Source: a virus. Taken from it: a stretch of DNA of 64,000 bases. Positions within the stretch are counted from its first letter, which is position 1. Every line of letters starts with the position of its first letter. The notes under the pieces were generated by a model. That model did no database searches, was not told the origin of the DNA, and saw only the letters and a program-made list of their open reading frames with translations. The position numbers were made by a program, and so were the translations under genes. The stretch lies in IMG/VR virus record IMGVR_UViG_3300031951_009873, positions 16,475 to 80,474 of that record; one strand, 5' to 3'. Shown here piece by piece: positions 3 to 35,014 of this stretch.

Positions 3-905
3 GATAAGCATAAATTTAATAAAAACAAAATAATTTTTATAACTAATACTTCTAACATAAAAGAAATTTATGAAAATTATTTAAAAAAGTCACAATTATA
101 TTCATTTATGATTTGTGAGTCCATTAACTTTTACATTAGTGGTGAACCTGGTAAAAATATTGTACGGTATGAAAACACCACTAAAAACTATCTAGTAGAT
201 AAGATAGTAGAACATGATATGGAGTATTCCTTGGATATGTCTCCATCAAGTAATCTACGCAATAAACACTTCTTATGTATGAACAGAAATAGTGGTAGAC
301 TGCATAGACCCAAATTAATATTAAAATTAATACAAGAAGGAATATTTGATAAAGGATTGTCGTCTTTATTAAGGTCCGACGAATTTAATAGATTCTGCGA
401 AAAACCAGAAAATATAGATTATAAAACTAATATAAAAGAAAAGTATCCATTTGTGATAGATTATGAAAACGCAGATTATGTTGCGGGTATGCACAATTAT
501 TTCACAAAAAAAGAAATGTGGAATGATACTTACTTCTCGATAGTAGCAGAAAGTTGTATAGAAACAGGTCCGGTGTTTATTACAGAAAAGGTAGTAAGAC
601 CTATGATATATTTTCATCCGTTTATAGTTTATGGTAATCCAAACACGTTGTCAGAACTACGTAAACTAGGATTTAAAACTTTCCCAGAATTTTTTGATGA
701 AAGTTATGATTTAATTGAGAACGAAGATGAACGTTTATCAATGATTGTAGAAAATATAAAGCGTATAAGTAATATGACATTGGAAGATGTACATAAGTTA
801 TATAACTCTGTATATCCAAAATTAGTCCACAACAGAAATTTGTTAGCTAAAATGGCAAAAGATAATTTTGTTGGTAACAAGTTTTTAGATACTATAAATT
901 TATGA
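3..905 (+). CDS. GT10 (fucosyltransferase)-like putative glycosyltransferase, paralogue 1 (5'-truncated by window edge)
   Basis: Frame is open from position 3 to the ATG at 108. C-terminal motif ESC..FITEKVVRPMIYFHPFIVYG...GFKTF..FFDESYD is shared with four other ORFs and resembles the GT10 'ENS..Y.TEK' motif. Confidence 0.6.
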   Translation, partial: DKHKFNKNKIIFITNTSNIKEIYENYLKKSQLYSFMICESINFYISGEPGKNIVRYENTTKNYLVDKIVEHDMEYSLDMSPSSNLRNKHFLCMNRNSGRLHRPKLILKLIQEGIFDKGLSSLLRSDEFNRFCEKPENIDYKTNIKEKYPFVIDYENADYVAGMHNYFTKKEMWNDTYFSIVAESCIETGPVFITEKVVRPMIYFHPFIVYGNPNTLSELRKLGFKTFPEFFDESYDLIENEDERLSMIVENIKRISNMTLEDVHKLYNSVYPKLVHNRNLLAKMAKDNFVGNKFLDTINL

Positions 906-2335
906 AAGACATTTTTTTAGTGCATGATTATATAACACCGTATGGTGAGTTGGAAAACGGTTTGAATTTTGATTATTTTTATTCTTATATTGAAAAGGAT
1001 TTCAACAAATACCACGACATCATAGCCGATTTACAAAAAAAATATTACGATGGTGTCTCTGTATGGATTGGACAAGGTACTATCTCGTATGCAGTAAAGG
1101 AAGAACTATCCACATATGATGTATTTGCAAATAATCATAAAACCGATGGTGTGTATCTATATCCTATATCTCCATTTGGTGGAGCTAGTTGTGCGTTTGG
1201 AATAAACCATAGTTTACACCAGAACAGGTCATTTTTCTTTTTCATACCAGAGAAAACAAAATACTTAATTAGAACTTTAGAAAATTTCTACTTATTTATA
1301 AATTATTCCAACGAAGGTACGTTGGATACTAATTTTTTTGAAGTAATATATAAAGATGCAGAAGAATTCAATATTCCGTTCGAAAAAATAATATTCTGTA
1401 TATCTGATTATGATATAAAAATGAGTTTCGATGCTTGGTATCAAGGATATAAAAACAGACCAGATGTAAGTTCAAACATATCCAAAATCAAGATTTTGTA
1501 TCACACATGGTCATTGAGAGACAAGGCAAAGGAGTTTAAAAAAATATTAAACAACGAGGCCACGGTATTTAATCACAATAAAAACAAATGTACAGTCGTA
1601 ACAAAAGAAGAAGTTACAGACAAAATTGTTAGACAAAAACGATTTTTAATGTTGAATAGAAGATTAAGACCGCATAGGTTATACTCTATATTACTATGCA
1701 GCCATTTGAATTTGCTAAACGAGTTTTATATTTCTTATGATTTAAACAATATGGAAGTGTTTGAATTAGAAAAATCAATGTATACAACCGACCATCTTAA
1801 AAATGAATTTCCATTTGAATTAGTAGAAGAAGAATACAAAAAATTAAAGATGACAGCTCCGGTTAGTACGCTAGATTTTAAAAATTTACAAGATGTGTGG
1901 GGATTTAATTTTGAAGATAAACGAATTTATCAGCAATCATACATACACATAACTTCGGAAACTAATTTTTTTGAAAATGGTGGATATTTTTCTGAAAAGA
2001 CATGGAAACCCATCGGCCATCTCCAACCGTTCATTTTTCTTGGACCAGCAAATGGATTAAAAGAAATTAAAAAGTTAGGATTTAAAACATTTTCTCCATT
2101 TATAGATGAAAGTTATGATGAAGAAAGAAATAATGCAAAACGATTTAAAATGATAATAAATGAAATAGAAAGATTAGCAAAATTGCCATTAGAAGAAATT
2201 CATAATTGGTATCATTCTATTTTTGAAGATATTTTAATATATAATCAAGAGTTGTTTATACAATATGAAAATGATGACTTGATGAAAAATTTTTTCACTA
2301 AAAATCTGTTTGAGGTCTTGGATGTTAACACCTAA
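902..2335 (+). CDS. GT10-like putative glycosyltransferase, paralogue 2
   Basis: FLMLNRRLRPHR and ETNF..FSEKTWKPIGHLQPFIFLG..GFKTF..FIDESYD motifs. Confidence 0.6.
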   Translation: MKDIFLVHDYITPYGELENGLNFDYFYSYIEKDFNKYHDIIADLQKKYYDGVSVWIGQGTISYAVKEELSTYDVFANNHKTDGVYLYPISPFGGASCAFGINHSLHQNRSFFFFIPEKTKYLIRTLENFYLFINYSNEGTLDTNFFEVIYKDAEEFNIPFEKIIFCISDYDIKMSFDAWYQGYKNRPDVSSNISKIKILYHTWSLRDKAKEFKKILNNEATVFNHNKNKCTVVTKEEVTDKIVRQKRFLMLNRRLRPHRLYSILLCSHLNLLNEFYISYDLNNMEVFELEKSMYTTDHLKNEFPFELVEEEYKKLKMTAPVSTLDFKNLQDVWGFNFEDKRIYQQSYIHITSETNFFENGGYFSEKTWKPIGHLQPFIFLGPANGLKEIKKLGFKTFSPFIDESYDEERNNAKRFKMIINEIERLAKLPLEEIHNWYHSIFEDILIYNQELFIQYENDDLMKNFFTKNLFEVLDVNT

Positions 2336-3329
2336 TGTAAATAATGAATGGGGACAACTTAAAAAAATAATACTGGGAAGTTCTTTCGGTGCGCAAATTC
2401 CTACTACGAAGGATAAAGGACTGCATTGTGTAGATTACGCTCATTATACTGATGAAGAGTTTTCTACAATACCAACTGGTTCATATCCATTACAAGTCTT
2501 AGAAGAAACACAACAAGACTTAATGCAGATAGAACAAATTTTAACTGGATTGGGAGTCGAGGTATATCGTCCACCCTCTATTCCGAAAAATAGACCATTT
2601 AATGACTCGTATTATGATTATTGTCCACGGGATTCTATGTTGGTAATTAAAGATAAAGTTATAGCTACTCCTATGACATTACGTCAACGAAGAGATGAAG
2701 CGGACAAATACAGACAACTATTTACGCCGGAAAGTTGGGTAACCTTTCCAAAACCAGTTGCAGATGATAGCTTATATGACCGTAGTGATTTGTCGAGAAG
2801 TACGTTGATGAATACTGAGCCCGTATTTGATGCAGCAAACGTACTTAAAGCAAACTATGATTTATTATACTTGGTATCAAATACTGGAAACAAGGCTGGA
2901 GCTGAATATTTACAAAATTGGTTACACGACAACATATCAGAACACTATAGAGTACATCTTGCAGAGAATATATACGCATATATTCATATAGACACCACGT
3001 TTGTTTTCTTACGAGAGGGGTTGGTATTGACAAACCCAGCTAGAGTTAATGTAAACAACATGCCAGATTTTCTAAGAAGATGGGATGTATTAAATGCATC
3101 GGAACCATATCCGACTCAAGTTATGTCAGATTGGTGTCCGGCGTCACCGTGGTTAGGTATGAATATTTTGTCTATTAATGAAAAACTGGTTATGGTAGAA
3201 GAACACCAGATTATGTTAATGAAAATGTTAAAAAAGTTTGGAATTGAGTCAATACCAGTTAAATTACGCCACGCAAGAACATTAAGCGGCGGTCCTCACT
3301 GTATTACATTGGATATTGAAAGAGAGTAA
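2322..3329 (+). CDS. Amidinotransferase (glycine / inosamine-phosphate amidinotransferase family)
   Basis: NEWGQLK, YCPRD, VFDAAN (Asp), IHIDTT (His) and LSGGPHCITLD (Cys) catalytic motifs. ATG at 2322 preferred over the TTG at 2310. Confidence 0.92.
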   Translation: MLTPNVNNEWGQLKKIILGSSFGAQIPTTKDKGLHCVDYAHYTDEEFSTIPTGSYPLQVLEETQQDLMQIEQILTGLGVEVYRPPSIPKNRPFNDSYYDYCPRDSMLVIKDKVIATPMTLRQRRDEADKYRQLFTPESWVTFPKPVADDSLYDRSDLSRSTLMNTEPVFDAANVLKANYDLLYLVSNTGNKAGAEYLQNWLHDNISEHYRVHLAENIYAYIHIDTTFVFLREGLVLTNPARVNVNNMPDFLRRWDVLNASEPYPTQVMSDWCPASPWLGMNILSINEKLVMVEEHQIMLMKMLKKFGIESIPVKLRHARTLSGGPHCITLDIERE

Positions 3330-3333
3330 CCCC

Positions 3334-3362
3334 TTGACATATTTACAAAAAAGTATTATAAT
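3334..3362 (+). promoter_or_regulatory. Sigma70-type promoter (perfect consensus)
   Basis: TTGACA (3334-3339) - 17 nt - TATAAT (3357-3362), then AAGGAGG RBS before ATG 3391. Confidence 0.9.
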
Positions 3363-3390: not shown

Positions 3391-4173
3391 ATGAAAGAAT
3401 GGAAGTATATAACGACAGAAGAACAACAGCAAATGTTATTCGCATGGCGGTACATTGGTTTCGTTAATTTGGAACTTTTGACCGAAGAAGAAGTAGACGA
3501 AATAAACGAAGAAATGGATACACTTCGCCGTGCAAGAACAGGAACTACTTCACCCGATGGAAAGGTTTGGGGAGAATGGGATCCATTCTCATATCCACAC
3601 AAGTTATCTCCTAAATTAGCAAAGTTGTATTCACACCCAAAGATTCTTGAAGCATCAGAATTCTTAATGGGAACAGAAATCATCGGTATGCAAAGTTGGG
3701 GATATTTCAAGCCACCCGGACAGCTCGGACGGGATATGCATCAAAACGCATTCTATACTAAGTGTGGCCCAAATGAAATCATCAATGTGGCTATTGCACT
3801 AGATAACCATGACCCTGTGAATGGTGCGGTATGGAATTACGAAGGTTCGCATCTTCTCCCAGTACTTCCAATCGAAGTTGATGAAGAACGGACAAAGACC
3901 AATCCAGCATTCTGGCACAATGAACGCGGTAAGCCTTGTGTAATGCCAGAAGGACATGGGTTCCGAAAGATTGAAGGTTTCCAACGAAAGGGAACGATGA
4001 CTCTTCTTCACTCCCACGTTGTCCATGGCTCTGAACCAAATGTATCAAATAGAATGCGCCGTAACTTCATCGGCGGTTATTTGAAGAAGGGAGCACCTTT
4101 CGCTTCTGGAAATCAAATGAAGCGTGAACCAATCGATATGTACGCAATGCGAAGGGAGCATTGGGGGTTCTAA
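3391..4173 (+). CDS. PhyH-family 2OG-Fe(II) dioxygenase with atypical HxN motif
   Basis: YFKPPG..RDMHQN, IALD..D..NG, distal H in HVVHGS.PN.S.R.RR. Confidence 0.85.
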   Translation: MKEWKYITTEEQQQMLFAWRYIGFVNLELLTEEEVDEINEEMDTLRRARTGTTSPDGKVWGEWDPFSYPHKLSPKLAKLYSHPKILEASEFLMGTEIIGMQSWGYFKPPGQLGRDMHQNAFYTKCGPNEIINVAIALDNHDPVNGAVWNYEGSHLLPVLPIEVDEERTKTNPAFWHNERGKPCVMPEGHGFRKIEGFQRKGTMTLLHSHVVHGSEPNVSNRMRRNFIGGYLKKGAPFASGNQMKREPIDMYAMRREHWGF

Positions 4174-4174
4174 A

Positions 4175-5143
4175 GTGAAAGTATTATTAACTGGTGGTGC
4201 TGGTTATTTAGGTTCTATAATCACCAACAAGCTACTTAATGACGGATACGCGGTGACTGTGTTAGACTCTTTGGAGTTTAACCAGCTATCGCTGCTTCCG
4301 TATGTCAAAAATAAAAACTTTACTTTTATTTACGGTGATGCTAGAAATAAAACCATCCTTAAAAAATTAATAGAATCACACGATGTAATCATCCCGCTAG
4401 CAGCAAGAGTAGGATTTCCAGCGTGCGATGCTGACCCTCTTACCGCAACGCAACTGAATTACGAACAAATCGTTGATGTGGTTAAGTTTGCAGATGGTAA
4501 AGCTAAGATACTATTCCCAAATACTAATAGTGGATATGGAGTGGCAGAGGGTGGACAGGTTTGTAAAGAAACTAGTCCACTCAATCCTATTTCTCACTAT
4601 GGAGTAACTAAGGTAAACGCAGAACGATTCTTATTACAGAATAGTGATGCTATATGCTTTAGACTCGCTACTGTATTTGGTCCATCCCCACGAATGAGAA
4701 CCGATTTGCTGGTGAATGAATTCGTGTATAAAGCCATAACTGACAAATATATTGTATTGTTTGAACCACACTTCAAGAGAAATTACATTCATATTGAAGA
4801 TGTGGCAAATGTATTTTCATTTATGTTAGCAAATTATGACACACATAAGAACGAAGTATTCAATGTAGGATTATCTGATGCTAACTTGTCAAAGTTGGAA
4901 TTAGTTAATCTGATTAAAAAATATGTTCCAGATTTTGCTATAAGTGTTTCTGATTATTACGAAGACCCAGACAAGCGGGATTACATCGTATCTAACGAAA
5001 AGATTGAAGCAACCGGATGGCGTCCACAATATAGTATTGATGATGGTATCGTGGAACTTATTAACACATATAGAATGATTGTTCCTAGAATGTCATCTGA
5101 ATTTAGAAACGGATTTCCATTGGGATACGCAAACAATCTCTAA
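4175..5143 (+). CDS. NAD-dependent sugar epimerase/dehydratase (extended SDR)
   Basis: TGGAGYLG, YGVTK (YxxxK), RLATVFG. GTG start at 4175 follows the upstream stop. Confidence 0.9.
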   Translation: MKVLLTGGAGYLGSIITNKLLNDGYAVTVLDSLEFNQLSLLPYVKNKNFTFIYGDARNKTILKKLIESHDVIIPLAARVGFPACDADPLTATQLNYEQIVDVVKFADGKAKILFPNTNSGYGVAEGGQVCKETSPLNPISHYGVTKVNAERFLLQNSDAICFRLATVFGPSPRMRTDLLVNEFVYKAITDKYIVLFEPHFKRNYIHIEDVANVFSFMLANYDTHKNEVFNVGLSDANLSKLELVNLIKKYVPDFAISVSDYYEDPDKRDYIVSNEKIEATGWRPQYSIDDGIVELINTYRMIVPRMSSEFRNGFPLGYANNL

Positions 5144-5144
5144 T

Positions 5145-5696
5145 ATGAACTATAAATATACTCGCTGGAATGACTTTGAGGTTCGTCCATCAAAAGTATT
5201 TGGTGACGAAGTTCCTATGTTTTCTCCTACATCATATCAAGAATTTCGCGGGGAAATCTGGACCAGCTATCATTCTAAGTTCCATCCGATGAAGGATTAT
5301 ATTAGTTATATGACCGACCCCGTAATACACGATAGACATTCTCGGTCGTATAAAGGTGTATTGCGGGGACTACATTATGACCATAAAACTTGGAAAATGG
5401 TTCAGGCGCTAGTAGGTGACATTTATTTAGTGGTACTGGATGTTCGGGAAGATTCATTTACCTACGGAAAATGGGAATCATATATAATCTCAGAAGCCAA
5501 TAAAATGCAAGTACTTGTCCCACCTGGGTTCGCTAATGGCCATTATGCATTAACTGACTGTATATTTAGTTATAATTTATTTTATGACGGTGATTTTGTT
5601 GACGTAGATAAACAATTAGTTATCAAATGGAATGACCCCAAGTTTGGTATGGAATGGCCAACCTCTACCCCAATATTACAAAAACGTGATTCATAA
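5145..5696 (+). CDS. rmlC: dTDP-4-dehydrorhamnose 3,5-epimerase-like (RmlC cupin)
   Basis: SYKGVLRGLHY, VVLDVREDSFTYGKW, VPPGFANG, IKWNDP..GMEWP. Confidence 0.85.
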   Translation: MNYKYTRWNDFEVRPSKVFGDEVPMFSPTSYQEFRGEIWTSYHSKFHPMKDYISYMTDPVIHDRHSRSYKGVLRGLHYDHKTWKMVQALVGDIYLVVLDVREDSFTYGKWESYIISEANKMQVLVPPGFANGHYALTDCIFSYNLFYDGDFVDVDKQLVIKWNDPKFGMEWPTSTPILQKRDS

Positions 5697-6406
5697 TGAA
5701 AAGGTACAATCATGTATTATCTTTCGGATGTAGTTTTACCGAAGGTGGTGGGCTGGACTCACCAGAACATTATAGATATGTAAAAGGTAATTGTAATATA
5801 GGAAAAAGTACACTAAAAACATATATGTCGGACCACGCATATCCAGCGGTTTTAGCAAAACAATTAAAATGCGTTCACACAAATAAAAGTATTTCTCGTG
5901 CATCAAATGAATTAATTTTCAAAACTTTGTATGAAAATACAAAAAATATTTTTGATGGAACTGGATTATTAGTAACAATACAAACAACTATATTATCTAG
6001 ATTACTATTATACCTTGAAGATAATAAGCAATTTCAGACGGTTAATGGATTGTATGGTCCCGATTATATTCAACAATACTATGAACTATACATAAAACAT
6101 TTTTATAACGCAAAAATTGAATACGCAAAATTATTACAAAATATAGATGTGTACAGTCAGTATTTAAAAAATAAAAATATAGATTTTGTTTGGTTGTTAG
6201 GGGACACAGACGGAGAACCAGTGGTAGCAAACAAATATACGATACCATTTGAACATGAAAGTTTACTGTCATTTATCAGTAGTAATAAATTAAGAATATG
6301 CGATTTACCTAATAACCCGTTCGTTGATTATCATATTTCTGAACGTGGCCACGAAGTAGTTTCAGAAAAAATAATAAAGCATTTAGAGGAATATTATGGT
6401 TACTAA
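5696..6406 (+). CDS. SGNH/GDSL hydrolase-like protein, paralogue 1
   Basis: N-terminal FGCSFTEG, ASN block, C-terminal DYH. Confidence 0.65.
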   Translation: MKRYNHVLSFGCSFTEGGGLDSPEHYRYVKGNCNIGKSTLKTYMSDHAYPAVLAKQLKCVHTNKSISRASNELIFKTLYENTKNIFDGTGLLVTIQTTILSRLLLYLEDNKQFQTVNGLYGPDYIQQYYELYIKHFYNAKIEYAKLLQNIDVYSQYLKNKNIDFVWLLGDTDGEPVVANKYTIPFEHESLLSFISSNKLRICDLPNNPFVDYHISERGHEVVSEKIIKHLEEYYGY

Positions 6407-7028
6407 TTTAGAAAAATATCCAGTAGTCAGAGACATTTTACATACAACCGACGATTTAATTTTATTTGAAGATAAAATTGTACAGCATTGGGAAGATGGT
6501 AAGATTCGTGGTCCTGTTCATCTTTCGAATGGAAACGAAAGTCAGCTTATAGATATTTTCAAACGTATTAAAACAACTGATTGGGTATTCTCAACATGGC
6601 GTTCACACTATCATGCCCTACTCAAAGGAATCTCACCAGAGTGGATTGAATCGGAAATTCTTCAAGGTAAATCAATTACGCTATGTAATATAGATGAAAA
6701 GTTTTATTCTTCTGCCATAGTCGGAGGAACTCTTTCTATCGCTCTAGGTGTAGCCACGGCTATCAAGCGTGACGGCGGGAATGACAAGGTGTGGTGCTTT
6801 ATTGGTGATATGTCGTTTGAAAGTGGTATATTCTATGAAGTTCATAAGTACGCCAGAAACTTTGGATTACCATTATATTTTATTGTAGAAGATAATCATG
6901 TTTCTACTAATACACCAACAGAAGCCACTTGGAATTATACCCTACGGGATATTCCAGAGGATGTTATTTATTATAATTACAAGTCAAAATATCCTCATTA
7001 CGGCACTGGAAAATGGGTAGTGTTTTGA
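6396..7028 (+). CDS. TPP-dependent enzyme, PDH/acetoin-dehydrogenase E1 alpha-like (short form)
   Basis: GPVHLS.G.E, STWRSHYHAL, SAIVGG, TPP motif GD..FESG..YE...EDN. Confidence 0.88.
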   Translation: MVTNLEKYPVVRDILHTTDDLILFEDKIVQHWEDGKIRGPVHLSNGNESQLIDIFKRIKTTDWVFSTWRSHYHALLKGISPEWIESEILQGKSITLCNIDEKFYSSAIVGGTLSIALGVATAIKRDGGNDKVWCFIGDMSFESGIFYEVHKYARNFGLPLYFIVEDNHVSTNTPTEATWNYTLRDIPEDVIYYNYKSKYPHYGTGKWVVF

Positions 7029-7032: not shown

Positions 7033-8232
7033 ATGCGGTATAATTCTGAACAGCACAACTTTAAAAAATTTATAAAAGAGTGGGATACTGACTCCGAATA
7101 TGTTTTATTTGGGGCAAGTAAAGAGTGCGTTCAGTTTATCAGAAGTTTGGATTTGTTGATGGGAGAAGGAACGCTAAAGATAAAGTATATAGTTGACCAT
7201 AATCTTAAGAGTTCTACGACAGTTGACAGTATACAAGAAATAAGTTCATTCTATCGGCAGTCCAAGAAAATAGATAACAAACGTAATAACTTAAGATTAG
7301 TTCATATAGATGACTTTAATGATTCCGAAGCAAAGGTCATTATTACAACTGACGAATTTAGAAACGAGTATAAAAAGTACTTAGGAGAAAGAAACATAAA
7401 ATTTACTTGGTACAAAAATATAGCAGCTATTTGGCCGTTCGAACATAAAAACAAAGTCCACATATTTCAGACAGACATATTGGTTACGGAACGCTGTAAC
7501 TTGAATTGTTCTCACTGTAATATGTTTATACCGCATTATGAAACCCCCACACATAGAGATGCGGATATTATGATAAATGATATTGATTTGTTATTTACTA
7601 AGGCAGATTATGTAAGTATACTTCATCTGGTCGGAGGAGAACCGTTTTTATATCCTAACATAGATGCTGTGATTAAGCATATAGTGTACAATTATATCAA
7701 TAGAATAGATAAGTTTATTATCACTACCAACGGCACGGTCACTCCAAAAGATACCACTATGCAATTATTACGAAATAGTGATGTAATATTGAGTGTCAGC
7801 GACTATTCCAATAAACTAGAAAAACTTAAGACCAAAGTAACCAAAAACATAGAGAATTACCAGAACAATAATATCACACATTATGTTCGAAATAATATAG
7901 AGTGGTATGATTTTGGTGATTTACGAGTAAAGAAAAACCTACCAGAAGATGAGTTAATACAACACTTTGATAGCTGTACAGCTCCGTTCCGTGGACTAAA
8001 TGAAGGTAAATTCTACTATTGTCACTTGAACACCAGCGCGGTATTAACTAAATTGTTCCCACAAAACAACAATGATTATGTAGACTTAAAGTCGGTATCT
8101 CGGGAAGATTTTCTAAAATTTGATTTGGGATATACAAATTTGGGATACATTACATTCTGTGATAACTGTAATGGATGTAATACTGGAATAAAAATACCAG
8201 TTAGCTATGAAAAACAAGGGGTACGTCAATGA
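7033..8232 (+). CDS. Radical SAM enzyme with N-terminal Rossmann-like domain
   Basis: CNLNCSHC, GGEP, TNGT, C-terminal CDNCNGC. Confidence 0.9.
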   Translation: MRYNSEQHNFKKFIKEWDTDSEYVLFGASKECVQFIRSLDLLMGEGTLKIKYIVDHNLKSSTTVDSIQEISSFYRQSKKIDNKRNNLRLVHIDDFNDSEAKVIITTDEFRNEYKKYLGERNIKFTWYKNIAAIWPFEHKNKVHIFQTDILVTERCNLNCSHCNMFIPHYETPTHRDADIMINDIDLLFTKADYVSILHLVGGEPFLYPNIDAVIKHIVYNYINRIDKFIITTNGTVTPKDTTMQLLRNSDVILSVSDYSNKLEKLKTKVTKNIENYQNNNITHYVRNNIEWYDFGDLRVKKNLPEDELIQHFDSCTAPFRGLNEGKFYYCHLNTSAVLTKLFPQNNNDYVDLKSVSREDFLKFDLGYTNLGYITFCDNCNGCNTGIKIPVSYEKQGVRQ

Positions 8233-8702
8233 TTGTTATAGTTGATATTGACGGTACGGTTGGTACCCATAAGAAAAGAACTGAGCTAGCGACAGATAGT
8301 AATGGAGTATTTGATTGGGATATTTTCTATGCTCACGAAAATGTTATGTCTGATGAACCTATTTGGCAAACCATTTACAATGTTCGCCGGTATAAAAGTC
8401 AAAATTTTAAGATAGTAATGTTTACCGCTAGACCTGAATTTGTAAGGCGTTCTACTGAGGAATGGTTAAACTTGTATGATATACCATTCGATGAGTTACA
8501 CATGCGGAGCGCTGAAGACCATAAGATACCCGCGGTAGAATTAAAAAAGAAAATGTATGAAGCGTTTATTGATGATAGGGTGTTTTGTGCGTTTGATGAC
8601 AGAGATGAAATAATAGAACTGTGGTCATCATATGGGATACCAACATTTAAAGTAGATTATGAAATCGATAGATTACCAAACAAAATTATTACTGAGAAGT
8701 AA
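8229..8702 (+). CDS. HAD-family phosphatase (T4 PNK 3'-phosphatase-domain-like)
   Basis: DIDGT, FTAR, K, FDDR HAD motifs; no kinase domain. Confidence 0.85.
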   Translation: MIVIVDIDGTVGTHKKRTELATDSNGVFDWDIFYAHENVMSDEPIWQTIYNVRRYKSQNFKIVMFTARPEFVRRSTEEWLNLYDIPFDELHMRSAEDHKIPAVELKKKMYEAFIDDRVFCAFDDRDEIIELWSSYGIPTFKVDYEIDRLPNKIITEK

Positions 8703-9660: not shown

Positions 9661-9661
9661 T

Positions 9662-18647: not shown

Positions 18648-18648
18648 T

Positions 18649-24483: not shown

Positions 24484-25090
24484 TTCGTGGGACTGGGTTA
24501 CACATTTTGAAAATACTATAGCAGAGTATTGTGGGTCACGGTATGCAGTTGCGTGTGATTCCAACACCAATGCAATACGACTTGTATTACACTATCTGGG
24601 TATACAAAATCAACGCATACATATTCCGGCGAGAACATATGTGTCTGTACCGAACCAAATTATACTATCAGGAAATACACCAGTATTCGTAGATATTGAT
24701 TGGCAAGGGTTGTACAATATTGGAAATACTTCTATTGTTGATGCGGCTACCGCATTTTATAAGGGAATGTACCAAGAAAAGTATACCATATTATCTTTTC
24801 ATCTTAAGAAAATTTTGAACATCGGAACGGGTGGTATGATTCTGACCAACGATAAAGAGTTTGAACAATGGGCACGCCCTATGATTTATGATGGTAGACA
24901 TAAGAACAAAATGTACGTTGATGACCAATTTGAGTGTGTAGGTTGGCATATGTATATGACTCCAGAACAAGCCAAGCGTGGATTAGAAATATTTCATTCC
25001 GACAAAATTAAAGATTGGAACTCTCCGTGTGGTGGAAGTTGGTTATACAAAGATTTACGAGAACAAAATGTTTTTAAGAGTTACGTATGA
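24464..25090 (+). CDS. Short DegT/DnrJ/EryC1/StrS-family PLP aminotransferase
   Basis: FE..IAEYCG..YAVA..S.T.A, P..TY.S, VDAA, SFHLKK (PLP Lys), GGMILTND; only ~208 aa. Confidence 0.8.
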   Translation: MKYSISDSWDWVTHFENTIAEYCGSRYAVACDSNTNAIRLVLHYLGIQNQRIHIPARTYVSVPNQIILSGNTPVFVDIDWQGLYNIGNTSIVDAATAFYKGMYQEKYTILSFHLKKILNIGTGGMILTNDKEFEQWARPMIYDGRHKNKMYVDDQFECVGWHMYMTPEQAKRGLEIFHSDKIKDWNSPCGGSWLYKDLREQNVFKSYV

Positions 25091-26141: not shown

Positions 26142-26939
26142 ATGAAAACTATACTTTCTATTGGTTGTTCTTATGCTCTTGATTTAAATCAACACTATAA
26201 AAAAACTAGTACGCTTAGATTTTCATATGATGGTGCCTCGATAGAAACAATACTGGAAATGGTTAAGTATTTAGAAAGTACGGAAGAGCACTCAACTGAA
26301 AATTGGGTTGTGGGTATAACTCAAATAGGTAGATTGAATAAACAAATTCCAAAAGGATTAGAATGGCAATCTCCAACATTAATAAAACCTAGAAATTTAT
26401 TTTTCGACAAAGACCATAAATGGTGTTTTTTCTCGGAAGGACAAGAAGAAAAAGAAATGTCCTCTAATTTTTCATCAGAGTGGTGGAAAACCGAACATAT
26501 CTCACACGTTTCCAAGCCAATAGAAGAACACATTAGAAATTATCTGAATGCTATTGTTGAAATACAAAATATTTTGAAAGATAAAAAATTTGTAATGTTT
26601 TTGATGAATAATACATTAGATGGTTGGGTTTATAAAAAAGATGGTAGATTATCACATATATATTCTGAATATAAAGGTTTCGACATACCAGAATTTAATG
26701 ACACATTCACATTAGAAAAGATATGTCCCAGAGAGTGGTCTAATATAGATTTTAGTAAATTTTGTTTGTATGAACACATGCAAAGTAAGTTTGGTGGGCT
26801 TGATGAATACACTATACACAAGTATGGAGTAAATCATTTTGGTACGTATCAATCGGCGGATAAAAATGTATTTGGACAACATCCTATACACGAAGCACAA
26901 TGGAATTTTTTCAATGAGGTCATAAAACACAGATTATGA
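26142..26939 (+). CDS. SGNH hydrolase-like protein, paralogue 9
   Basis: IGCSYA, GAS, TQ..R, GG..EY, GQHP. Confidence 0.55.
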   Translation: MKTILSIGCSYALDLNQHYKKTSTLRFSYDGASIETILEMVKYLESTEEHSTENWVVGITQIGRLNKQIPKGLEWQSPTLIKPRNLFFDKDHKWCFFSEGQEEKEMSSNFSSEWWKTEHISHVSKPIEEHIRNYLNAIVEIQNILKDKKFVMFLMNNTLDGWVYKKDGRLSHIYSEYKGFDIPEFNDTFTLEKICPREWSNIDFSKFCLYEHMQSKFGGLDEYTIHKYGVNHFGTYQSADKNVFGQHPIHEAQWNFFNEVIKHRL

Positions 26940-27721
26940 TAAATAAAAAAACAGAATGGGATTTTAATAAATCCGAATATGGATTTGGCAGAACTAAAAT
27001 TGATAATTTCTTGGACGAAAACACCGTTCGGGCTTTATATGAAGAATGTGTAAACGCACCAAAGGGCGGATGGACTGTGTTTACTCGCGCGGGTTCTCGT
27101 ATGGAAGAGTTTAACGACTTGATTTCTTTACCGACCGCACACAGGATTACATATGATATTATGCACTCCGGTGAGTTCTTATATGAACTAGAACAAATGA
27201 CTGGTATCGTTGGATTACTACCAGACCCACATTTAGTTGGTTCGGGATATTCGATTATCAGAAATGGTAACACACTTGGGTGCCATTACGACTTTAACTG
27301 GAATGACCGTATCCGATTACATAGAAAATTGACATCATTGTTGTACATTACCCCAGACTGGCAAGACGAATGGGGTGGACATATTCAATATTATGATGAT
27401 AATATAGATGTTAATCCGAACGCAAAACTAATTGAATCGGTGGCACCAAGATTTAATAGATTTGTTATCAACGAGAATATTAAGCACGGACCATATCACA
27501 GAGTAAGTGCGGTAAATGCACCAGATGATATTGGTCGGTGTGCTATCAGGTTCTTCTATTATATCAGTACTTCTGATCCAGATAAAGACAATCCACCACA
27601 CAGAAGTACTTATAAATCCAACGAATATTCACATCACAAGCTATATGAAGAAGAAACTTGGGATGGGCATTTCGTAGGAAATGGCGGGGAAGACTACGGA
27701 TATAACCACACGAATAAATAA
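26936..27721 (+). CDS. 2OG-Fe(II) oxygenase (prolyl-hydroxylase-like)
   Basis: LLPDPHLVG.G, HYDFN, LLYITPDW..EWGG, P.FNR, YHRV, R.AIRFFYY. Confidence 0.88.
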   Translation: MINKKTEWDFNKSEYGFGRTKIDNFLDENTVRALYEECVNAPKGGWTVFTRAGSRMEEFNDLISLPTAHRITYDIMHSGEFLYELEQMTGIVGLLPDPHLVGSGYSIIRNGNTLGCHYDFNWNDRIRLHRKLTSLLYITPDWQDEWGGHIQYYDDNIDVNPNAKLIESVAPRFNRFVINENIKHGPYHRVSAVNAPDDIGRCAIRFFYYISTSDPDKDNPPHRSTYKSNEYSHHKLYEEETWDGHFVGNGGEDYGYNHTNK

Positions 27722-29819: not shown

Positions 29820-30584
29820 ATGAGAATTTTGGTTATGGGATTGCCTGGGTCTGGAAAGACTACATTATCTAAGGTATTGGCGGAAAAGTTAGATGCCGCT
29901 TACTTCAATGCAGACGAAGTACGGAAACAGTTCAACGATTGGGACTTTTCTGAAACTGGTCGTAAACGTCAAGCATATCGGATGCGGGAACTTTGTGATA
30001 TGTCAGAAACGTATCATACGGTGGCAGATTTTGTCTGTCCCACAGAAGAAACCCGTGAACTCTTCTTACCAGATTTTATTGTGTTTATGAATACAATAGA
30101 TGCTGGGAGATTTGAGGATACCAATAGAGTGTTTGAGGTACCCGAAAAGGTAAATGTATTGGTGAATGGATGGATAGACACAAATACACAAGCAGATATT
30201 ATCATTGAACAAATCAAGAAAGTGGACGTACATTTTGGTTGGCAGAATCCTACGGGACTGATGATTGGTCGGTTCCAACCATTCCACGATGGGCACTTGA
30301 AGTTATTTGAGACTATCTTGGAGAAGGAAGGTCAGGTACTTATTGCGGTCAGAGACACCTATAATACCGACGAAAAGAACCCATTCAATTATGTGGAGGT
30401 TATCGAAGGAATCCACAAGAAGCTGGAAAATAAGTACCGTGGAAAATACTATATAATGTCTGTCCCGAATATCACTGGGGTCTATTATGGTCGGGATGTG
30501 GGATATAAAGTCGAGAAAATCAATCTGGACCCACAAACTGAATCGATTTCTGCTACCCAAATTCGGAAGGAAATGGGGAAGTAA
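29820..30584 (+). CDS. cysC: Adenylylsulfate kinase fused to an HxGH nucleotidyltransferase domain (candidate compact PAPS synthase)
   Basis: MGLPGSGKTT, NADEVR, DFS..GR, ADFVCP, FE.P; C-terminal IGRFQPFHDGH ... ISATQIR. Confidence 0.8.
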   Translation: MRILVMGLPGSGKTTLSKVLAEKLDAAYFNADEVRKQFNDWDFSETGRKRQAYRMRELCDMSETYHTVADFVCPTEETRELFLPDFIVFMNTIDAGRFEDTNRVFEVPEKVNVLVNGWIDTNTQADIIIEQIKKVDVHFGWQNPTGLMIGRFQPFHDGHLKLFETILEKEGQVLIAVRDTYNTDEKNPFNYVEVIEGIHKKLENKYRGKYYIMSVPNITGVYYGRDVGYKVEKINLDPQTESISATQIRKEMGK

Positions 30585-30599: not shown

Positions 30600-31166
30600 A
30601 TGCAAGTAAATGTACCTGCGAATTGTGAAAGAATAAATGTTTTGTTTTCTGGAGGGGCAGATAGTTCACTATTGGCGTATCTGTTGATAAAGCAAAATAC
30701 TGATATACCGATAGTTCTTCATTTTATGAAACATAGGCTGGATTTTCAGAGTCCACACATGACTAACTGCCACAATTGGTTAGAACGACATTTTAATAAG
30801 AAAATTTTGTTAAATGGATGGGGAAAGACATTTATTAGACAAGCAGTTGAAATGATACTCATAGACTTTCCAGGATATGTGTATAGTGGGTGTAATAAGG
30901 TTCCTGAAAACGTATTTGTTCCAACGGTTATTATTCCGTACGATACCCCGCCGGTACGTGGTACTGAATATAATGAGTTTCATAAACGTCCGTTCATAGA
31001 AATGTTAAAGCCAGAGTTATATAAAATATACCAGAAAGAAAATATTTTAGATTTATTTAATCTATCTTTTTCTTGCGGGGCTCCTGTAAAAAATGAAGAT
31101 GGAGTAAATGTTCCGTGTGGGGGTTGTTTTTTCTGTATGGAACGCGTATGGGGAATGCAAAGTTAA
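30600..31166 (+). CDS. QueC-like PP-loop ATPase B
   Basis: LFSGGADS; SFSC...PCGGCFFCMER. Confidence 0.8.
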   Translation: MQVNVPANCERINVLFSGGADSSLLAYLLIKQNTDIPIVLHFMKHRLDFQSPHMTNCHNWLERHFNKKILLNGWGKTFIRQAVEMILIDFPGYVYSGCNKVPENVFVPTVIIPYDTPPVRGTEYNEFHKRPFIEMLKPELYKIYQKENILDLFNLSFSCGAPVKNEDGVNVPCGGCFFCMERVWGMQS

Positions 31167-31189: not shown

Positions 31190-32689
31190 ATGTCTGTATA
31201 TAATGTAGTTTACACCGGAGACACATCAAATCTTGTTACCAGTCTTACCTCCGCAGGTATCACTGTTAACAAAACATTTGAAGCTCTTAAGGTTTTAAAT
31301 GTTACCTCGGATAGTTCTGATTTTTCTCAATTTGCACAAATACTTGTAGTTGAGGAAGATATAGAAACCACGCCTGTGTTGGGTGCTTGGGCATTAAATA
31401 GAGTAAACAGTAAGATGTTACCTATGAGAAATGTATATACCCCAAGAAATTATGGCGATAACGTGGTTGTGTATGTTGTGGACTCCGGTATCGACTGGAC
31501 ACATCCAGAACTAACACATCTTACTCCAAACAATTTATATTCATATGATGAAAATTTCCAAGACATTATAGGTCACGGAACTGCTATTGCTAGTTTAGTT
31601 GCGGGAATGGTAGTGGGTGCATCTAAGTACGCCGTCTTAAAATCAGTAAAAATTCAAAGTGGAGTTCCCATACCAGTTAGTGATTTATTAACTGCGTTCA
31701 ATGTAATACTTACTGACCACAATGTAACTCCAACAGTTGTAAAAGTTGTAAACTGTTCGTGGTCAGTTGCAAAAAGTCAAATTCTTGATTTAAAAATTCA
31801 AGAATTGAAGGACGCGGGATTGGTAGTAGTTGCGTCGGCAGGTAATACTGTGTCAGATGCAAACTTACTGTCTCCTGTGGGATTAAACACCGTAATAGGT
31901 GTTGGTGCATGTGATGCATACGACAGAGTAATTAACTGGGGTCCAGCTGCAGGGTCAAACTGGGGGCCTGATGTAGATATTACTGCGCCAGGAATAGATG
32001 TAGAATATGCAAATGTTTCCGGTGGACTTATGTTGGGGTCAGGTACATCATTTGCGGCAGCTCTAGTTAGTGGATTAATCTGTCAATATATCTCCGCATA
32101 TCCAACAAAAACAGCAGCAGAAATACAAAGTGAATTCCTTGCCGCAGGTTTGCCGGATATGTTGTTTAGAAACGAAACAATATATGGTACTACCCCCAAT
32201 CTTTTAGCACAAGCTCTAGCACACGAAGAATTATTCACTTCACCGACACAAGTTTATTACAAAATACAACGTGGAACGGAATTGATTATTCCTATAACCG
32301 TGTTATCTCCTGCAGTAGCCGTACGTATCGATGATATTTTATTTGGTACACACGTACGAGATTGTTTACCGTGGGTGACTAGAAATAGTAATGGTGAGTT
32401 GGTAGTTTCACCACCAGCAGATTTGTTAGTTGGTGGGTATCGTATGTTTTTAGAAGCATTAGATGAAAACAATCAATCGTTAGAGATACGAGGAATTCGT
32501 TTTGGTGTGTACAATATAGACCCTAATGAAGTGGATTCAAGTGAACCAGATCAATATTATAGTCATCAAGAAGATGGTACAGTTGTAGTTCGTTTGGACG
32601 CATGTGTGTCTAGTTGTTTTGATACGTGTTCTGAAAGTTTCAAAGAAGGTCAATGTGCTTGTATTGGTGGTGGATGTAGTACTTTTTAA
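31190..32689 (+). CDS. Subtilisin-like S8 serine protease with prodomain, Ig-like region and Cys-rich tail
   Basis: VVDSG (Asp), GHGT (His), SAGN, SGTSFAA (Ser); C-terminal CVSSCFDTC...CACIGGGC. Confidence 0.9.
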   Translation: MSVYNVVYTGDTSNLVTSLTSAGITVNKTFEALKVLNVTSDSSDFSQFAQILVVEEDIETTPVLGAWALNRVNSKMLPMRNVYTPRNYGDNVVVYVVDSGIDWTHPELTHLTPNNLYSYDENFQDIIGHGTAIASLVAGMVVGASKYAVLKSVKIQSGVPIPVSDLLTAFNVILTDHNVTPTVVKVVNCSWSVAKSQILDLKIQELKDAGLVVVASAGNTVSDANLLSPVGLNTVIGVGACDAYDRVINWGPAAGSNWGPDVDITAPGIDVEYANVSGGLMLGSGTSFAAALVSGLICQYISAYPTKTAAEIQSEFLAAGLPDMLFRNETIYGTTPNLLAQALAHEELFTSPTQVYYKIQRGTELIIPITVLSPAVAVRIDDILFGTHVRDCLPWVTRNSNGELVVSPPADLLVGGYRMFLEALDENNQSLEIRGIRFGVYNIDPNEVDSSEPDQYYSHQEDGTVVVRLDACVSSCFDTCSESFKEGQCACIGGGCSTF

Positions 32690-32715
32690 AATATGTATAA
32701 TATAACAGTTATTAT

Positions 32716-33141
32716 ATGATACGAGTGTATACCGGAGGAACATTTGATTTATTTCACTATGGTCATATGAACTTCCTCCGGCAGTGTTCTGAGTTAGGTG
32801 ATGAGGTGATAGTGGCATTAAACACTGACGAGTTCATAGAAAAATATAAAAATCAGAAACCTATACTGTCATACGCAGAACGTTATGAGAGTTTAATGGG
32901 TTGCAAATATGTCACTCGTATAGTAAAAAATTTGTCAAGTGAGGATAGTAAGCCCACCATCTTGTCAGTACAACCTGATATCATTGCAATTGGAGATGAT
33001 TGGAAACATAAAAACTATTATAAACAAATGATGTTTACTGAAGAATGGCTTCGAGAACATTACATTGAATTGGTGTATTTGCCATACACCTCTATTATTT
33101 CTACCACTATTTTGAAAGAACGTATTAGGTATGGAAAATAA
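32716..33141 (+). CDS. tagD: Glycerol-3-phosphate cytidylyltransferase-like (TagD family)
   Basis: YTGGTFDLFHYGH, LNTDEF, ER, IGDDW, YLPYT..ISTT. Confidence 0.85.
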   Translation: MIRVYTGGTFDLFHYGHMNFLRQCSELGDEVIVALNTDEFIEKYKNQKPILSYAERYESLMGCKYVTRIVKNLSSEDSKPTILSVQPDIIAIGDDWKHKNYYKQMMFTEEWLREHYIELVYLPYTSIISTTILKERIRYGK

Positions 33142-33880: not shown

Positions 33881-34788
33881 AATATGAAAGAAGCATTTTG
33901 ATAAGAAGAACTTTACCAACTGTTGAGTTTGCACCAAGCTATTTTGGGCAGGTGTTGAAATTTCCACACCAAGGTGTTAGAAAATTTCACAATAACTATG
34001 ATAGTGAACGCTATCAGGATGTTGTAAAATTAGTTAGTGATTTGGAGATTTCTGAAGAGATATGGCCATATTATCACCTCGAAGAAGACTTTTACAAATA
34101 CAACTCTTTTGGTTATCGTACTTATGAATTGGATGAACTACAAAAATCTTTTGATATTGCTATAGGTTGTTGTTGTGTGGAGGGGTTAGGGTTAAGGCAG
34201 GAAGAAACCTGGGTACACCATTATGAAAAAAATACTGGCAGACAACTTGTTAACTTAGGAAAAGGTGGTACTGGATCAAACTACATTAATATAAACTTAA
34301 CTGCCTGGTTGAGTCATCGCCGGCGTCCAGACAGAGTTATCATTTTTTGGTCAGATCCAACCTCTAAAACAGTGTTTCGTGATAATGGTGATTTTACTAC
34401 ACTGCAATTTGGAAACCAACGTATACATCCAGTGGTTACTGATGGTGATGAGAACATAAATAAATGGTACAAAGCTGAACTACAAGACCGAGGCATTTCC
34501 AGTAATGAATTTGTCTTGACATATATGAGCACAAATGTTATGTTACACAGTAGTGGTATAGATGTTAGAAACTTTTTTCCTAGCATTTATTGGAAAGAAG
34601 AAGATGTAAGAAGTATAGAACAGTTCACCAACACCCAAGCTCACTATCTGGATTACAACAATGTTAGTGGCGGGTGGTCCTCTTTTCGTGATTATCAATA
34701 TTTTCCTTCATCTGACATGACTCATCATGGTTGGCAGCATCAAAAACCAATAGCAACTAAAATAGGTGAAATTTATGAAAATACCTGA
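33877..34788 (+). CDS. SGNH hydrolase-like protein, paralogue 10 (Cys in the nucleophile position)
   Basis: YKYNSFGYR, IGCCCVEGLG, NLGKGG, DMTHHG. Confidence 0.6.
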   Translation: MKYERSILIRRTLPTVEFAPSYFGQVLKFPHQGVRKFHNNYDSERYQDVVKLVSDLEISEEIWPYYHLEEDFYKYNSFGYRTYELDELQKSFDIAIGCCCVEGLGLRQEETWVHHYEKNTGRQLVNLGKGGTGSNYININLTAWLSHRRRPDRVIIFWSDPTSKTVFRDNGDFTTLQFGNQRIHPVVTDGDENINKWYKAELQDRGISSNEFVLTYMSTNVMLHSSGIDVRNFFPSIYWKEEDVRSIEQFTNTQAHYLDYNNVSGGWSSFRDYQYFPSSDMTHHGWQHQKPIATKIGEIYENT

Positions 34789-35014
34789 TATTAAAGAAAT
34801 CATTACCGCTTGGCATCATGCAGCCAACCCTACACCAGAACAACGAGAATTGGCTGAGTATCGTGGTTCTATTTGTGAGAGATGTGAACATAAAGAGTTC
34901 CGAACACTTATCAGATTCTATGTGTGTGGAGCATGTGGGTGTCCAATATCAAAGAAAATATACAGTCCCAAACCAGGCCCAGAAGCTTGTCCTAAAGAGA
35001 AGTGGGATAAATAA
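34775..35014 (+). CDS. Small Cys-rich zinc-finger-like protein
   Basis: R..ICERC....CGACGC....K....CPKEKW. Confidence 0.75.
   Translation: MKIPDIKEIITAWHHAANPTPEQRELAEYRGSICERCEHKEFRTLIRFYVCGACGCPISKKIYSPKPGPEACPKEKWDK

Follow-up and report, generated by a model that had tools for sequence, protein, structure and literature searches.

The gene block studied here belongs to a kind of phage island that has been described before. In pelagi- and cyanomyophages, the host recognition cluster (HRC), defined by its position between VrlC and the neck protein gp14, is a hypervariable stretch of 34 to 45 kb with fibers, glycosyltransferases (GTs), deoxysugar genes and radical-SAM cassettes, which has been read as changing the host O-chain (Zaragoza-Solas et al. 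2020, PMC7029224), and for the sugar and carbamoyltransferase/2-oxoglutarate (2OG)/HAD clusters of jumbo cyanophages either capsule decoration or a secondary metabolite has been proposed (Iyer et al. 2021, PMC7824862). We analyzed a window of 64,000 nucleotides (bases 16475-80474 of the single 80,474-bp virus contig IMGVR_UViG_3300031951_009873 from IMG/VR), in which a long run of sugar genes, here called the island, is a large, unusually elaborate variant of this kind (PMC7029224, PMC7824862). It is very probable that the block builds and heavily tailors glycans with soluble enzymes. The acceptor is named more tentatively: a virion fiber or another virion protein is the target that we favor without counting it as probable, the likeliest being the phage's own fiber proteins, O-glycosylated. 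A preliminary description of the same DNA had proposed a chemically elaborate glycan coat on the virion; of this proposal, the soluble building and tailoring of sugars stands, the terms "sulfated" and "GT10" are unsupported, and the virion is kept as acceptor at the tentative strength just given.

The likeness to the HRC extends to the type of phage, a T4-like aquatic myophage, and to a large, variable block in the structural region with tail fibers, several GTs, deoxysugar genes, and radical-SAM cassettes that vary between relatives. The HRC was, however, described from gene annotations, and its main GT family is GT8, whereas the present island has an unnamed GT-B family, ten SGNH-fold paralogues, an amidinotransferase and a split E1 pair; moreover, this phage is a freshwater one, and the freshwater fonsimyophages of PMC7029224 carry no such genes. 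With the "LPS" (lipopolysaccharide) or secondary-metabolite clusters of P-SSM2, S-SSM7 and S-SM2 (Sullivan et al. 2005, PMC1079782; PMC7824862), the island shares paralogous NAD-dependent epimerase/dehydratases, cupin isomerases, HIGH nucleotidyltransferases and kinases, as well as HAD phosphatases, 2OG oxygenases, NodU-type carbamoyltransferases, several GTs and, in S-SM2, a fused E1 protein that is 44% identical. Those clusters differ in having 10 to 24 genes and GT families of cellular type (e.g., GT11), and they lack both the GT-B family and the twitch radical SAM enzyme of the island (tblastn, 50,697 phage records). Large aquatic myophages spend 10-15% of their genome on such blocks.

In chloroviruses and in the fibrils of mimivirus, virion glycosylation is carried out by virus-encoded soluble transferases. 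Glycosylation of virion proteins by soluble transferases has also been reported for mycobacteriophages (Freeman et al. 2023, as cited in PMC12619734). Common to these systems and the island are cytoplasmic soluble transferases with neither lipid carrier nor exporter, GT genes beside structural genes, and Ser/Thr-rich exposed segments; they comprise, however, two to about ten genes and their glycans have been demonstrated chemically, whereas the present system is known from its genes alone, its enzyme set is at least four times larger, and its promoters are unlike those of the structural genes. The flagellin O-glycosylation islands of Campylobacter consist of about 50 genes for soluble enzymes, many in paralogous families, which put amidino-decorated rare sugars on Ser/Thr of an exported filament protein while it is in the cytoplasm. 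Hits of LegB/LegC/PseC type and PP-loop amidotransferase-like genes are shared with the island, a likeness of logic and not of homology. Sugar branching has been proposed for AviB1/AviB2 of actinomycete antibiotic clusters and for the thiamine diphosphate (ThDP) enzyme YerE; as with AviB1/AviB2, an E1 alpha/beta pair with no E2 or E3 lies among enzymes of 4-keto sugars, but here the subunits are minimal, 5.7 kb apart and viral.

The island comprises 47 open reading frames (ORFs) over about 39.8 kb, from contig base 11670 (4.8 kb ahead of the window) to window base 35014. All ORFs at window positions 3-35014 lie on the plus strand and overlap or are separated by a few bases, with just two gaps of 40 nt or more; the co-orientation and tight packing first reported are thus real, while the extent given at the time (35 kb, 45 genes) was too small, the start lying ahead of the window. 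G+C content is 34.2% in island genes and 41.4% in the rest of the contig (Mann-Whitney p = 7e-7). Ahead of the window, three unknowns, the first of them a small gene, occur with a GT-A-like gene and a twitch radical SAM gene; one of the other two unknowns was called a probable methyltransferase from a motif recognized by eye. In about 45 of 78 IMG/VR loci we found a ten-gene core, in the order twitch radical SAM, GT-B, short-chain dehydrogenase/reductase (SDR), RmlC, E1 alpha, GT-B, SDR, SDR, E1 beta, GT-B. In what follows, G000 is this contig, G001-G004 are its closest relatives, G005 is a complete relative of 288,673 bp, and L001 marks coordinates on this contig including the part ahead of the window. 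The sugar-donor enzymes and other conserved members are:

L001:14586-15998, + strand: twitch radical SAM paralogue ahead of the window, also above the curated NF033640 cut-off
4124..5143, + strand: nucleoside diphosphate (NDP)-sugar epimerase/dehydratase (SDR), core module; Pfam Epimerase E 3e-31, NCBIfam
5079..5696, + strand: RmlC-like 3,5-epimerase (cupin), core module; Pfam PF00908 E 4e-33
6396..7028, + strand: minimal ThDP-dependent E1 alpha-like subunit, core module; Pfam E1_dh E 5e-16, TIGR03182 E 5e-26
10824..11822, + strand: GDP-fucose-synthase-like SDR, core module; 86-92% conserved across contigs, NCBIfam
11826..12809, + strand: second GDP-fucose-synthase-like SDR, core module; family searches including NCBIfam
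12761..13321, + strand: minimal E1 beta-like subunit with the pyrimidine-binding domain only, core module; Pfam Transket_pyr, NF006667 E 4e-12
14341..15594, + strand: radical SAM enzyme with an N-terminal twitch domain; NCBIfam NF033640, 304 bits (cut-off 170)
24458..25090, + strand: short (210-aa) DegT/LegC/PseC-type aminotransferase-like protein; Pfam PF01041 E 3e-24, NCBIfam, 75% identity in G005
32716..33141, + strand: TagD-like cytidylyltransferase; Pfam PF01467 E 2e-21

Searches of Pfam, NCBIfam and PDB thus bore out the three SDRs, RmlC, the E1 alpha/beta pair, DegT (in a short form) and TagD of the preliminary description, as well as both of its radical SAM genes (7033-8232 and 14341-15594), of which kind the run in fact contains four. 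The E1 subunits measure 210 and 186 aa, and the alpha subunit is 44-46% identical to the fused form of cyanophages S-SM2 and P-TIM68 (44% for S-SM2). The Pfam assignments of the island include no nonulosonic-acid synthase, and a Maf-type transferase was not specifically searched for. If these assignments translate into activity, the core would convert a host NDP-hexose to a 4-keto-6-deoxy sugar and then epimerize it, and the E1 pair would add a two-carbon branch from pyruvate, which we take to be the chemistry proposed for AviB1/AviB2 and YerE. The SDRs would reduce the branched product, the GT-B enzymes would transfer the branched sugar and others in the cytoplasm, and SGNH-fold, amidino-, carbamoyl- and ribosyl-adding enzymes would decorate the glycan.

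The putative transferases form one family of five paralogues, as judged by BLASTP and alignment:

3..905, + strand: g012, GT-B-family paralogue, 459 aa in full with its start 474 nt ahead of the window; BLASTP to the other paralogues at E 1e-12 to 1e-31, family alignment
902..2335, + strand: g013, GT-B-family paralogue; paralogy by BLASTP, alignment
9647..10849, + strand: g023, GT-B-fold protein, the modeled member, core module; AlphaFold2 (AF2) pLDDT 92.6, pTM 0.90, Foldseek, VIA
16536..18647, + strand: g030, SGNH-like N-terminal domain fused to a GT-B-family C-terminal domain; paralogy by BLASTP, alignment, motifs
23251..24483, + strand: g037, GT-B-family paralogue; paralogy by BLASTP, alignment

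The preliminary proposal of a glycan coat on the virion had been made to depend on a GT-B fold of the five GT10-like proteins, and the AF2 model of g023 has this fold, a point in favor of a virion target: its Foldseek hits at E<=1e-3 and its top VIA rows are all GT-B enzymes. Membership in GT10 was not supported, as the Pfam model PF00852 has zero matches at E<=10 in G000, G001, G003, G004 and G005. The best VIA-align rows tie at Z 11.1-10.4 and comprise the T4 beta- and alpha-glucosyltransferases, a Rickettsia GT, Helicobacter and plant fucosyltransferases, FUT9, a chlorovirus (PBCV) GT and EXT1; the GT10 structures 5zoi, 7yro, 8d0o and 9s6a (Z 10.8-9.9) have the lowest root-mean-square deviation, in a tie with the T4 enzymes and others. 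A conserved SEK...P...G..PFI motif in the C-terminal domain would be compatible with nucleotide-sugar binding. None of the five paralogues has a Pfam match, and the family has neither a PHROG nor a sequence or profile match in PDB; tblastn of the GT-B protein against the 50,697 phage records likewise gave no match. A profile search returned 12,913 cluster representatives (clustering at 50% identity) with E<=1e-3, and 274 near-length homologues were found in metagenomes, with relatives at the 78 IMG/VR loci. Many tandem double GT-B forms of 740-1018 aa also turned up elsewhere in that profile search. Genomes of 185,579 prokaryote species yielded two hits only, both on short contigs of metagenome-assembled genomes; both peptide patterns with which the scan was made are particular to the g023 subfamily, so that the term "virus-specific" holds for that subfamily.

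The structural ties bring phage DNA into consideration as the acceptor, with the transferases glycosylating hydroxymethylated phage bases and the other enzymes decorating the glycan against restriction. VIA ranks the beta- and alpha-glucosyltransferases of T4 first and second for the model (Z 11.1 and 11.0, tied with others), virus GTs that place multi-sugar glycans on DNA have been reported (Pyle et al. 2024, as cited in PMC12619734), and the island contains weakly QueC-like PP-loop genes and a weakly QueE-like radical SAM gene. On the other hand, no hydroxymethylase was found in the contig, and PF00303 is absent from G000, G001, G003 and G004, each of which is a fragment; in G005, a strong thymidylate-synthase homologue has canonical ThyA motifs, and a second, weak hit (19.9 bits) has no counterpart in the window. 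The window also encodes a dUTPase and ordinary replication genes, and we know of no precedent on DNA for branched deoxysugars, amidino or carbamoyl groups, or a set of ten esterase-fold proteins. Hypermodification of DNA is, on balance, very unlikely, and we attach a similarly slight chance to any target other than the virion, the host envelope, a soluble product or DNA.

The favored acceptor lies directly upstream of the island, where there are two fiber genes: g004 (L001:4279-9138; 1,619 aa, with a weak match to the N-domain of the T7 tail fiber) and g005 (L001:9209-11410; 733 aa, ending in an S74 chaperone domain). They contain 210 and 79 Gly-X-Y triplets, respectively, 289 in total, with almost only Ser, Thr or Ala at X and Y and no Pro. 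As acceptor, these proline-free Gly-Ser/Thr-Ser/Thr triplets would offer hundreds of hydroxyl groups, and glycosylation of the fibers would resemble flagellin or mucin-type O-glycosylation and the virion glycosylation of mycobacteriophages and giant viruses. The adjacency to Ser/Thr-rich, collagen-like virion genes had been noted in the preliminary description, although the collagen-like fibers themselves are upstream, outside the window. The order of fibers followed by island is kept in the four closest relatives (G001-G004). On longer stretches of four records, the position in the relatives G005-G009 could also be seen: in G005, G006, G008 and G009 the module follows fibers of 717-2436 aa, several with an S74-type C-terminus, and ends with a homologue of g013, with a methyltransferase, a GT2-like gene and two lectin-fused GT7-like genes between the fibers and the module; in the 382-kb G007, a related module follows ORFs of 4,522 and 687 aa. 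Tail-fiber genes thus precede the island in three divergent groups of phages. At the 78 loci, the 10-kb flanks contained no collagen-like or large Ser/Thr-rich ORFs, the flanks there being filled by the island itself.

Further transferase genes were noted around the fibers of relatives. In G005, each of the two GT7-like transferases between fibers and core has a ConA-like lectin domain (L094:9048-11911; 109048-111914), an architecture that we take to recall lectin-bearing polypeptide GalNAc-transferases, and a 717-aa BACON-domain protein lies just upstream of the pair. On the far side of the fibers, three relatives (L109, L115, L119-L120; G006 66387-70697, G008 29141-33449, G009 107727-111976) have a GT-B gene resembling g037 and a conserved ORF of 1,052 aa, so that transferase genes bracket the fibers in G006, G008 and G009.

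A Kyte-Doolittle hydropathy scan, a crude method, found no convincing transmembrane segment in any island ORF. The same scan, with no profile search, gave no multi-pass candidate for a flippase, ABC permease, polymerase/ligase or initiating phosphoglycosyl transferase in the 80-kb contig or in the complete 288-kb G005; the absence of a flippase, Wzy or ABC exporter that had been reported for the window accordingly extends to the contig and to one complete relative, and is valid for these two, the contig being about 33% of its genome. A cytoplasmic, virus-specific acceptor is favored by the lack of membrane proteins in the island and of a transporter in G005, by the near absence of the g023 subfamily from prokaryotes and by the adjacent Ser/Thr-rich fibers. 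In the fullest form of the fiber reading, the phage would O-glycosylate its own (Gly-Ser/Thr-Ser/Thr)n fibers with a branched-chain, guanidinylated, carbamoylated, ribofuranosylated, O-acylated glycan by means of virus-specific GT-B and SGNH families, and the glycan would stabilize the triple helix and form a receptor-binding or shielding surface; it is somewhat unlikely that this picture is right in all its parts.

The promoters group the genes differently. Six intergenic consensus sigma70-type sites (TTGACA-N17-TAnnnT) lie 22-65 nt ahead of gene starts, against about 0.3 expected from the intergenic share, while a second motif, ATATTTATA, has five copies in the contig, four of them intergenic, at 29-35 nt before the fiber gene g005, its neighbor g003, the baseplate gene g060 and the unannotated g054:

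L001:11609-11637: sigma70-type site before the island start, g007; consensus match
3334..3362, + strand: sigma70-type site TTGACA-N17-TATAAT, 29 nt before the PhyH gene g015; consensus match
37841-37869: sigma70-type site before the helicase gene; consensus match
50951-50979: sigma70-type site before g069; consensus match
52765-52793: sigma70-type site before gp32; consensus match
60761-60789: sigma70-type site before g080; consensus match
L001:1721-1729: ATATTTATA before g003; motif
L001:9172-9180: ATATTTATA before the fiber gene g005; motif
35035..35043, + strand: ATATTTATA 29 nt before g054 (35072-36508), marking the switch to the structural-type promoter motif; motif
39988-39996: ATATTTATA before the baseplate gene g060; motif

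Generic promoter and terminator scans performed at chance level, and only top intergenic matches were used. In this lineage, ATATTTATA is a candidate for the late-promoter motif; TATAAATA, the word that marks T4 late promoters, was rejected in that role, as all four of its copies are intragenic. In G005, the sigma70 consensus does not occur in intergenic DNA and ATATTTATA is found in 48 copies, 35 of them intergenic, ahead of genes of all classes, and the promoter split applies to the present contig.

Several observations weigh against the fibers as acceptor: (i) their synteny with the island may merely mark a hypervariable region that collects accessory genes, as does the HRC (PMC7029224); (ii) G005 carries the core, yet has no collagen-like fiber; (iii) O-antigen glycosyltransferases are also soluble or peripheral, so that the lack of membrane proteins is compatible with a host lipid-linked acceptor; (iv) in structural comparison, both DNA glucosyltransferases of T4 rank first for the GT-B model, level with fucosyltransferases and others; (v) the type of promoter suggests that the island groups with the early/replication genes, not with the structural genes; and (vi) early-type promoters, such as would speak for DNA modification, would fit that function or a take-over of the host at least as well as virion decoration.

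Points (iii) and (vi) touch on a remodeling of the host surface, in which soluble transferases would act at the inner membrane face on undecaprenyl- or lipid A-linked intermediates, the host flippase and ligase would export the glycan, and superinfection would be blocked. The equivalent islands of pelagi- and cyanomyophages have been read as host-surface change (PMC7029224, PMC7824862), and S-SM2 and P-TIM68 carry the fused homologue of the E1 pair within such clusters; early-type promoters would suit a function during infection, and the cassettes vary among co-occurring relatives in the manner of serotype loci. Borrowed LPS genes should, however, have cellular relatives, whereas Pfam, PHROGs and the PDB sequences contain no match for the GT-B family and the g023 patterns are nearly absent from prokaryotes. 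Nor did the hydropathy scan of the contig and G005 find an initiating phosphoglycosyl transferase, flippase, polymerase or ligase. The exporters of the host would need to handle a strongly modified glycan in the course of a lytic cycle. We consider this reading unlikely, though one to be kept in view, and continue to favor the fibers, tentatively, as the acceptor.

The SGNH-like proteins, ten in number as first reported when the fusion protein g030 is included, share a G-[CDS]-S motif in the N-terminal region and a His in the C-terminal region; the motifs are present in all ten, and the fold was established for one (g029). The nine remaining members are:

5696..6406, + strand: SGNH-like paralogue, variable cassette; motifs, missing in co-occurring relatives
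13323..14192, + strand: SGNH-like paralogue; GDSFTWGEG ... GHP motifs
15601..16539, + strand: g029, SGNH-fold protein, the modeled member; AF2 pLDDT 89.9, VIA top 50 all SGNH/GDSL at Z 12.6-9.0
18628..19362, + strand: SGNH-like/DUF6071 paralogue; Pfam DUF6071 E 2e-5 (below cut-off), motifs
21409-22365, + strand: SGNH-like paralogue; motifs
22341-23087, + strand: SGNH-like paralogue; motifs
25436-26140, + strand: SGNH-like paralogue; motifs
26142-26939, + strand: SGNH-like paralogue; motifs
33877-34788, + strand: SGNH-like paralogue; motifs

Gly and His are invariant among the ten and Ser nearly so, while the Asp preceding the His is not; among 40 homologues, G8, S10, H292 and Asn49 are invariant and Asn57 nearly invariant. 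The family profile matches GDSL and TesA chains (E 4e-4 to 7e-3), and the Foldseek matches of the g029 model, though weak, are exclusively SGNH proteins. The fold matches include carbohydrate acetylesterases, the peptidoglycan O-acetyltransferases PatB and OatA, and CgnD of crocagin synthesis; the nearest Atlas clusters are viral DUF6071 proteins. Since one gene (g030) joins an SGNH-like and a GT-B domain, both families are tied to one pathway.

The tailoring enzymes and the remaining island genes are:

2310..3329, + strand: StrB1-type amidinotransferase; PDB 1bwd (StrB1) E 1.8e-77 over residues 9-338, AGAT 1e-34
3391..4173, + strand: g015, PhyH-type 2OG/Fe(II) dioxygenase; Pfam PF05721 E 3e-19
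7033..8232, + strand: radical SAM enzyme, forming a variable cassette with the next two genes; Pfam Radical_SAM E 1e-11
8229..8702, + strand: HAD phosphatase of PNKP type; Pfam PF25109 E 5e-20
8659..9660, + strand: g022, candidate glycan phosphoribosyltransferase-like protein; ESM Atlas model
19359..20993, + strand: NodU/CmcH-type carbamoyltransferase; Pfam N-terminal domain E 3e-60, C-terminal domain E 4e-58
21003..21407, + strand: g033, conserved 134-aa protein of unknown function; 74-84% identity across contigs
26936..27721, + strand: P4H-type 2OG/Fe(II) oxygenase; Pfam PF13640 E 1.5e-12, 85% identity in G005
27721-28368, + strand: first of a paralogue pair of unknown fold; mutual paralogy E 1e-27
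28365-28946, + strand: PP-loop ATPase, weakly QueC-like, between the pair; weak matches
28963-29598, + strand: second of the paralogue pair of unknown fold; mutual paralogy E 1e-27
29820..30584, + strand: P-loop kinase fused to a HIGH-type (NMNAT-like) nucleotidyltransferase; PDB NMNAT E 9e-7
30600..31166, + strand: second PP-loop ATPase, weakly QueC-like; PHROG 1550 E 1e-8
31190..32689, + strand: subtilisin-like S8 protease; Pfam PF00082 E 1e-26
33131-33880, + strand: unknown protein; ORF
34766-35014, + strand: Cys-rich 82-aa protein at the end of the low-GC run; ORF

Several of these confirm earlier calls. The amidinotransferase matches StrB1 over its full length, and its DYCPRD, HIDTT and GGPHC motifs, presumably the sites of the catalytic Cys-His-Asp residues as in StrB1 and AGAT, are kept in alignment with those of StrB1; both Pfam domains of the carbamoyltransferase and both 2OG oxygenases were likewise recovered. 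The two "QueC-like" genes do encode PP-loop proteins, but the likeness to QueC is weak, and a PDB sequence and profile search with the PP-loop protein gave no match. The sulfation branch, in contrast, found no support: (i) the paralogue pair called sulfotransferases has no Pfam, PDB or PHROG match, which leaves that call without support, and (ii) in the protein called an adenosine 5'-phosphosulfate (APS) kinase or mini 3'-phosphoadenosine 5'-phosphosulfate synthase, the P-loop domain fits generic kinases better than APS_kinase and the second domain matches NMN adenylyltransferase, not sulfurylase. The domain content of this fusion resembles that of NadR, and it may belong to NAD salvage instead of the sugar pathway. 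The protein g022 has no Pfam, PDB or PHROG match, and PHROGs held no family for 8 of the 10 island proteins searched; the ESM Atlas model of g022 aligns (TM 0.84-0.90) to a domain that is fused to HAD hydrolases, Capsule_synth or RgpF in bacteria, and a HAD gene directly precedes g022, which supports a phosphoribosyltransferase indirectly. Pairing of a glycan phosphoribosyltransferase with a HAD phosphatase is the arrangement for ribofuranosylation, as in Hib Bcs3 (PMC10299916). The S8 protease, which the preliminary description did not list, lies among sugar genes; fiber maturation and peptide processing are possible roles.

Some of the same enzymes would fit a soluble product, either a small aminoglycoside-like pseudo-oligosaccharide or a glycosylated modified peptide, directed at the host or at competing phages. 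Streptomycin synthesis supplies the nearest match of the amidinotransferase, StrB1 (E 1.8e-77), and aminoglycoside pathways employ the kinds of enzyme seen here in a DegT-type aminotransferase, RmlC, SDRs, a carbamoyltransferase, a phosphatase and a kinase. For a peptide, one may add the radical SAM protein at 7033-8232, which weakly matches peptide maturases in NCBIfam, the S8 protease within the block and CgnD among the SGNH fold matches; a secondary metabolite has been proposed for a cyanophage cluster as well (PMC7824862). The family assignments of the island by Pfam scans, however, include no cyclitol synthase, NRPS/PKS or recognizable precursor-peptide gene, and no exporter was found in the hydropathy scan. 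Six transferases and ten SGNH paralogues would be excessive for one small molecule, and the conserved place behind the fibers would be left unexplained. A soluble product is decidedly unlikely, and fiber glycosylation is again the reading that we prefer.

Comparison with G005 (complete, with terminal repeats, and with a family-B DNA polymerase [PolB] 50% identical to that of this phage) qualifies the term "island." Its core lies at 112-123 kb, whereas the remaining island genes are dispersed at 68, 177, 217 and 248-274 kb; the label "phage island" was therefore overstated, and what this phage has collected in one place is a lineage-wide gene set. Between G000 and G005, identities are 63-88% for donor-pathway enzymes, 31-59% for replication proteins and 31-46% for GT-B enzymes, a contrast of conserved and diverged parts that suggests a fixed donor with diversifying acceptors or linkages. 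Some island genes share 74-88% identity with genes of a relative that has 31% GC and a polymerase only 50% identical; the low G+C content of the island and such high identity despite a diverged polymerase suggest that sugar genes have been exchanged between phage lineages. Contigs of co-occurring relatives join 5659->6395 and 7026->10070 (three lake runs each), so that one SGNH gene (5696-6406) and the block of radical SAM, HAD and g022 genes behave as presence/absence cassettes.

Whatever the target, the block holds enzyme families of interest: a GT-B family that comprises some 13,000 clusters and lacks a Pfam or PHROG profile, viral SGNH/DUF6071 proteins, a minimal split enzyme predicted to branch sugars with ThDP, and N-terminal twitch radical SAM enzymes. 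If the glycan is indeed placed on the fibers, (i) host recognition and defense escape of abundant freshwater and marine phages would hinge on virus-made sugars and not on protein surfaces alone, (ii) the published "LPS gene" reading would need revision, and (iii) an elaborate fiber glycan would make this the most elaborate viral protein-glycosylation system known, common in lakes and oceans.

The contig covers about a third (CheckV completeness 33%) of the genome of an uncultured freshwater T4-like jumbo myophage, which measures roughly 240-300 kb, and does not represent an 80-kb phage that devotes half its genome to sugars. Its genes are all on one strand. Downstream of the island follow an SNF2 helicase, a T4-type baseplate protein, fiber-like proteins, gp32, UvsX and a 5'-3' exonuclease and, further on, a DnaB-like helicase, ribonucleotide reductase, dUTPase and PolB; the assignment to the T4-like myophages rests on the baseplate protein, gp32, UvsX, the DnaB-like helicase and PolB, the last being 44% identical to that of Microcystis phage Mel-JY01. 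Megablast of window positions 1-25000 against the 50,697 phage records gave zero matches, and near-identical DNA is present in lake and freshwater metagenomes from 14 studies.

Relatives of the twitch radical SAM enzyme were seen in two other large phages. Directly after its module, the 382-kb G007 has seven radical-SAM paralogues that are relatives of the twitch family (L113-L114; 255531-269228). Among the 50,697 phage records, tblastn with the twitch enzyme matched only the cultured 344-kb Ralstonia phage RsoM2USA, in which the gene for a protein of 41% identity lies between genes resembling g009 and g010, each with a hypothetical product by annotation (L106:14007-17746; 215949-219688). As RsoM2USA also encodes a carbamoyltransferase, part of the system might be studied in the laboratory with this phage.

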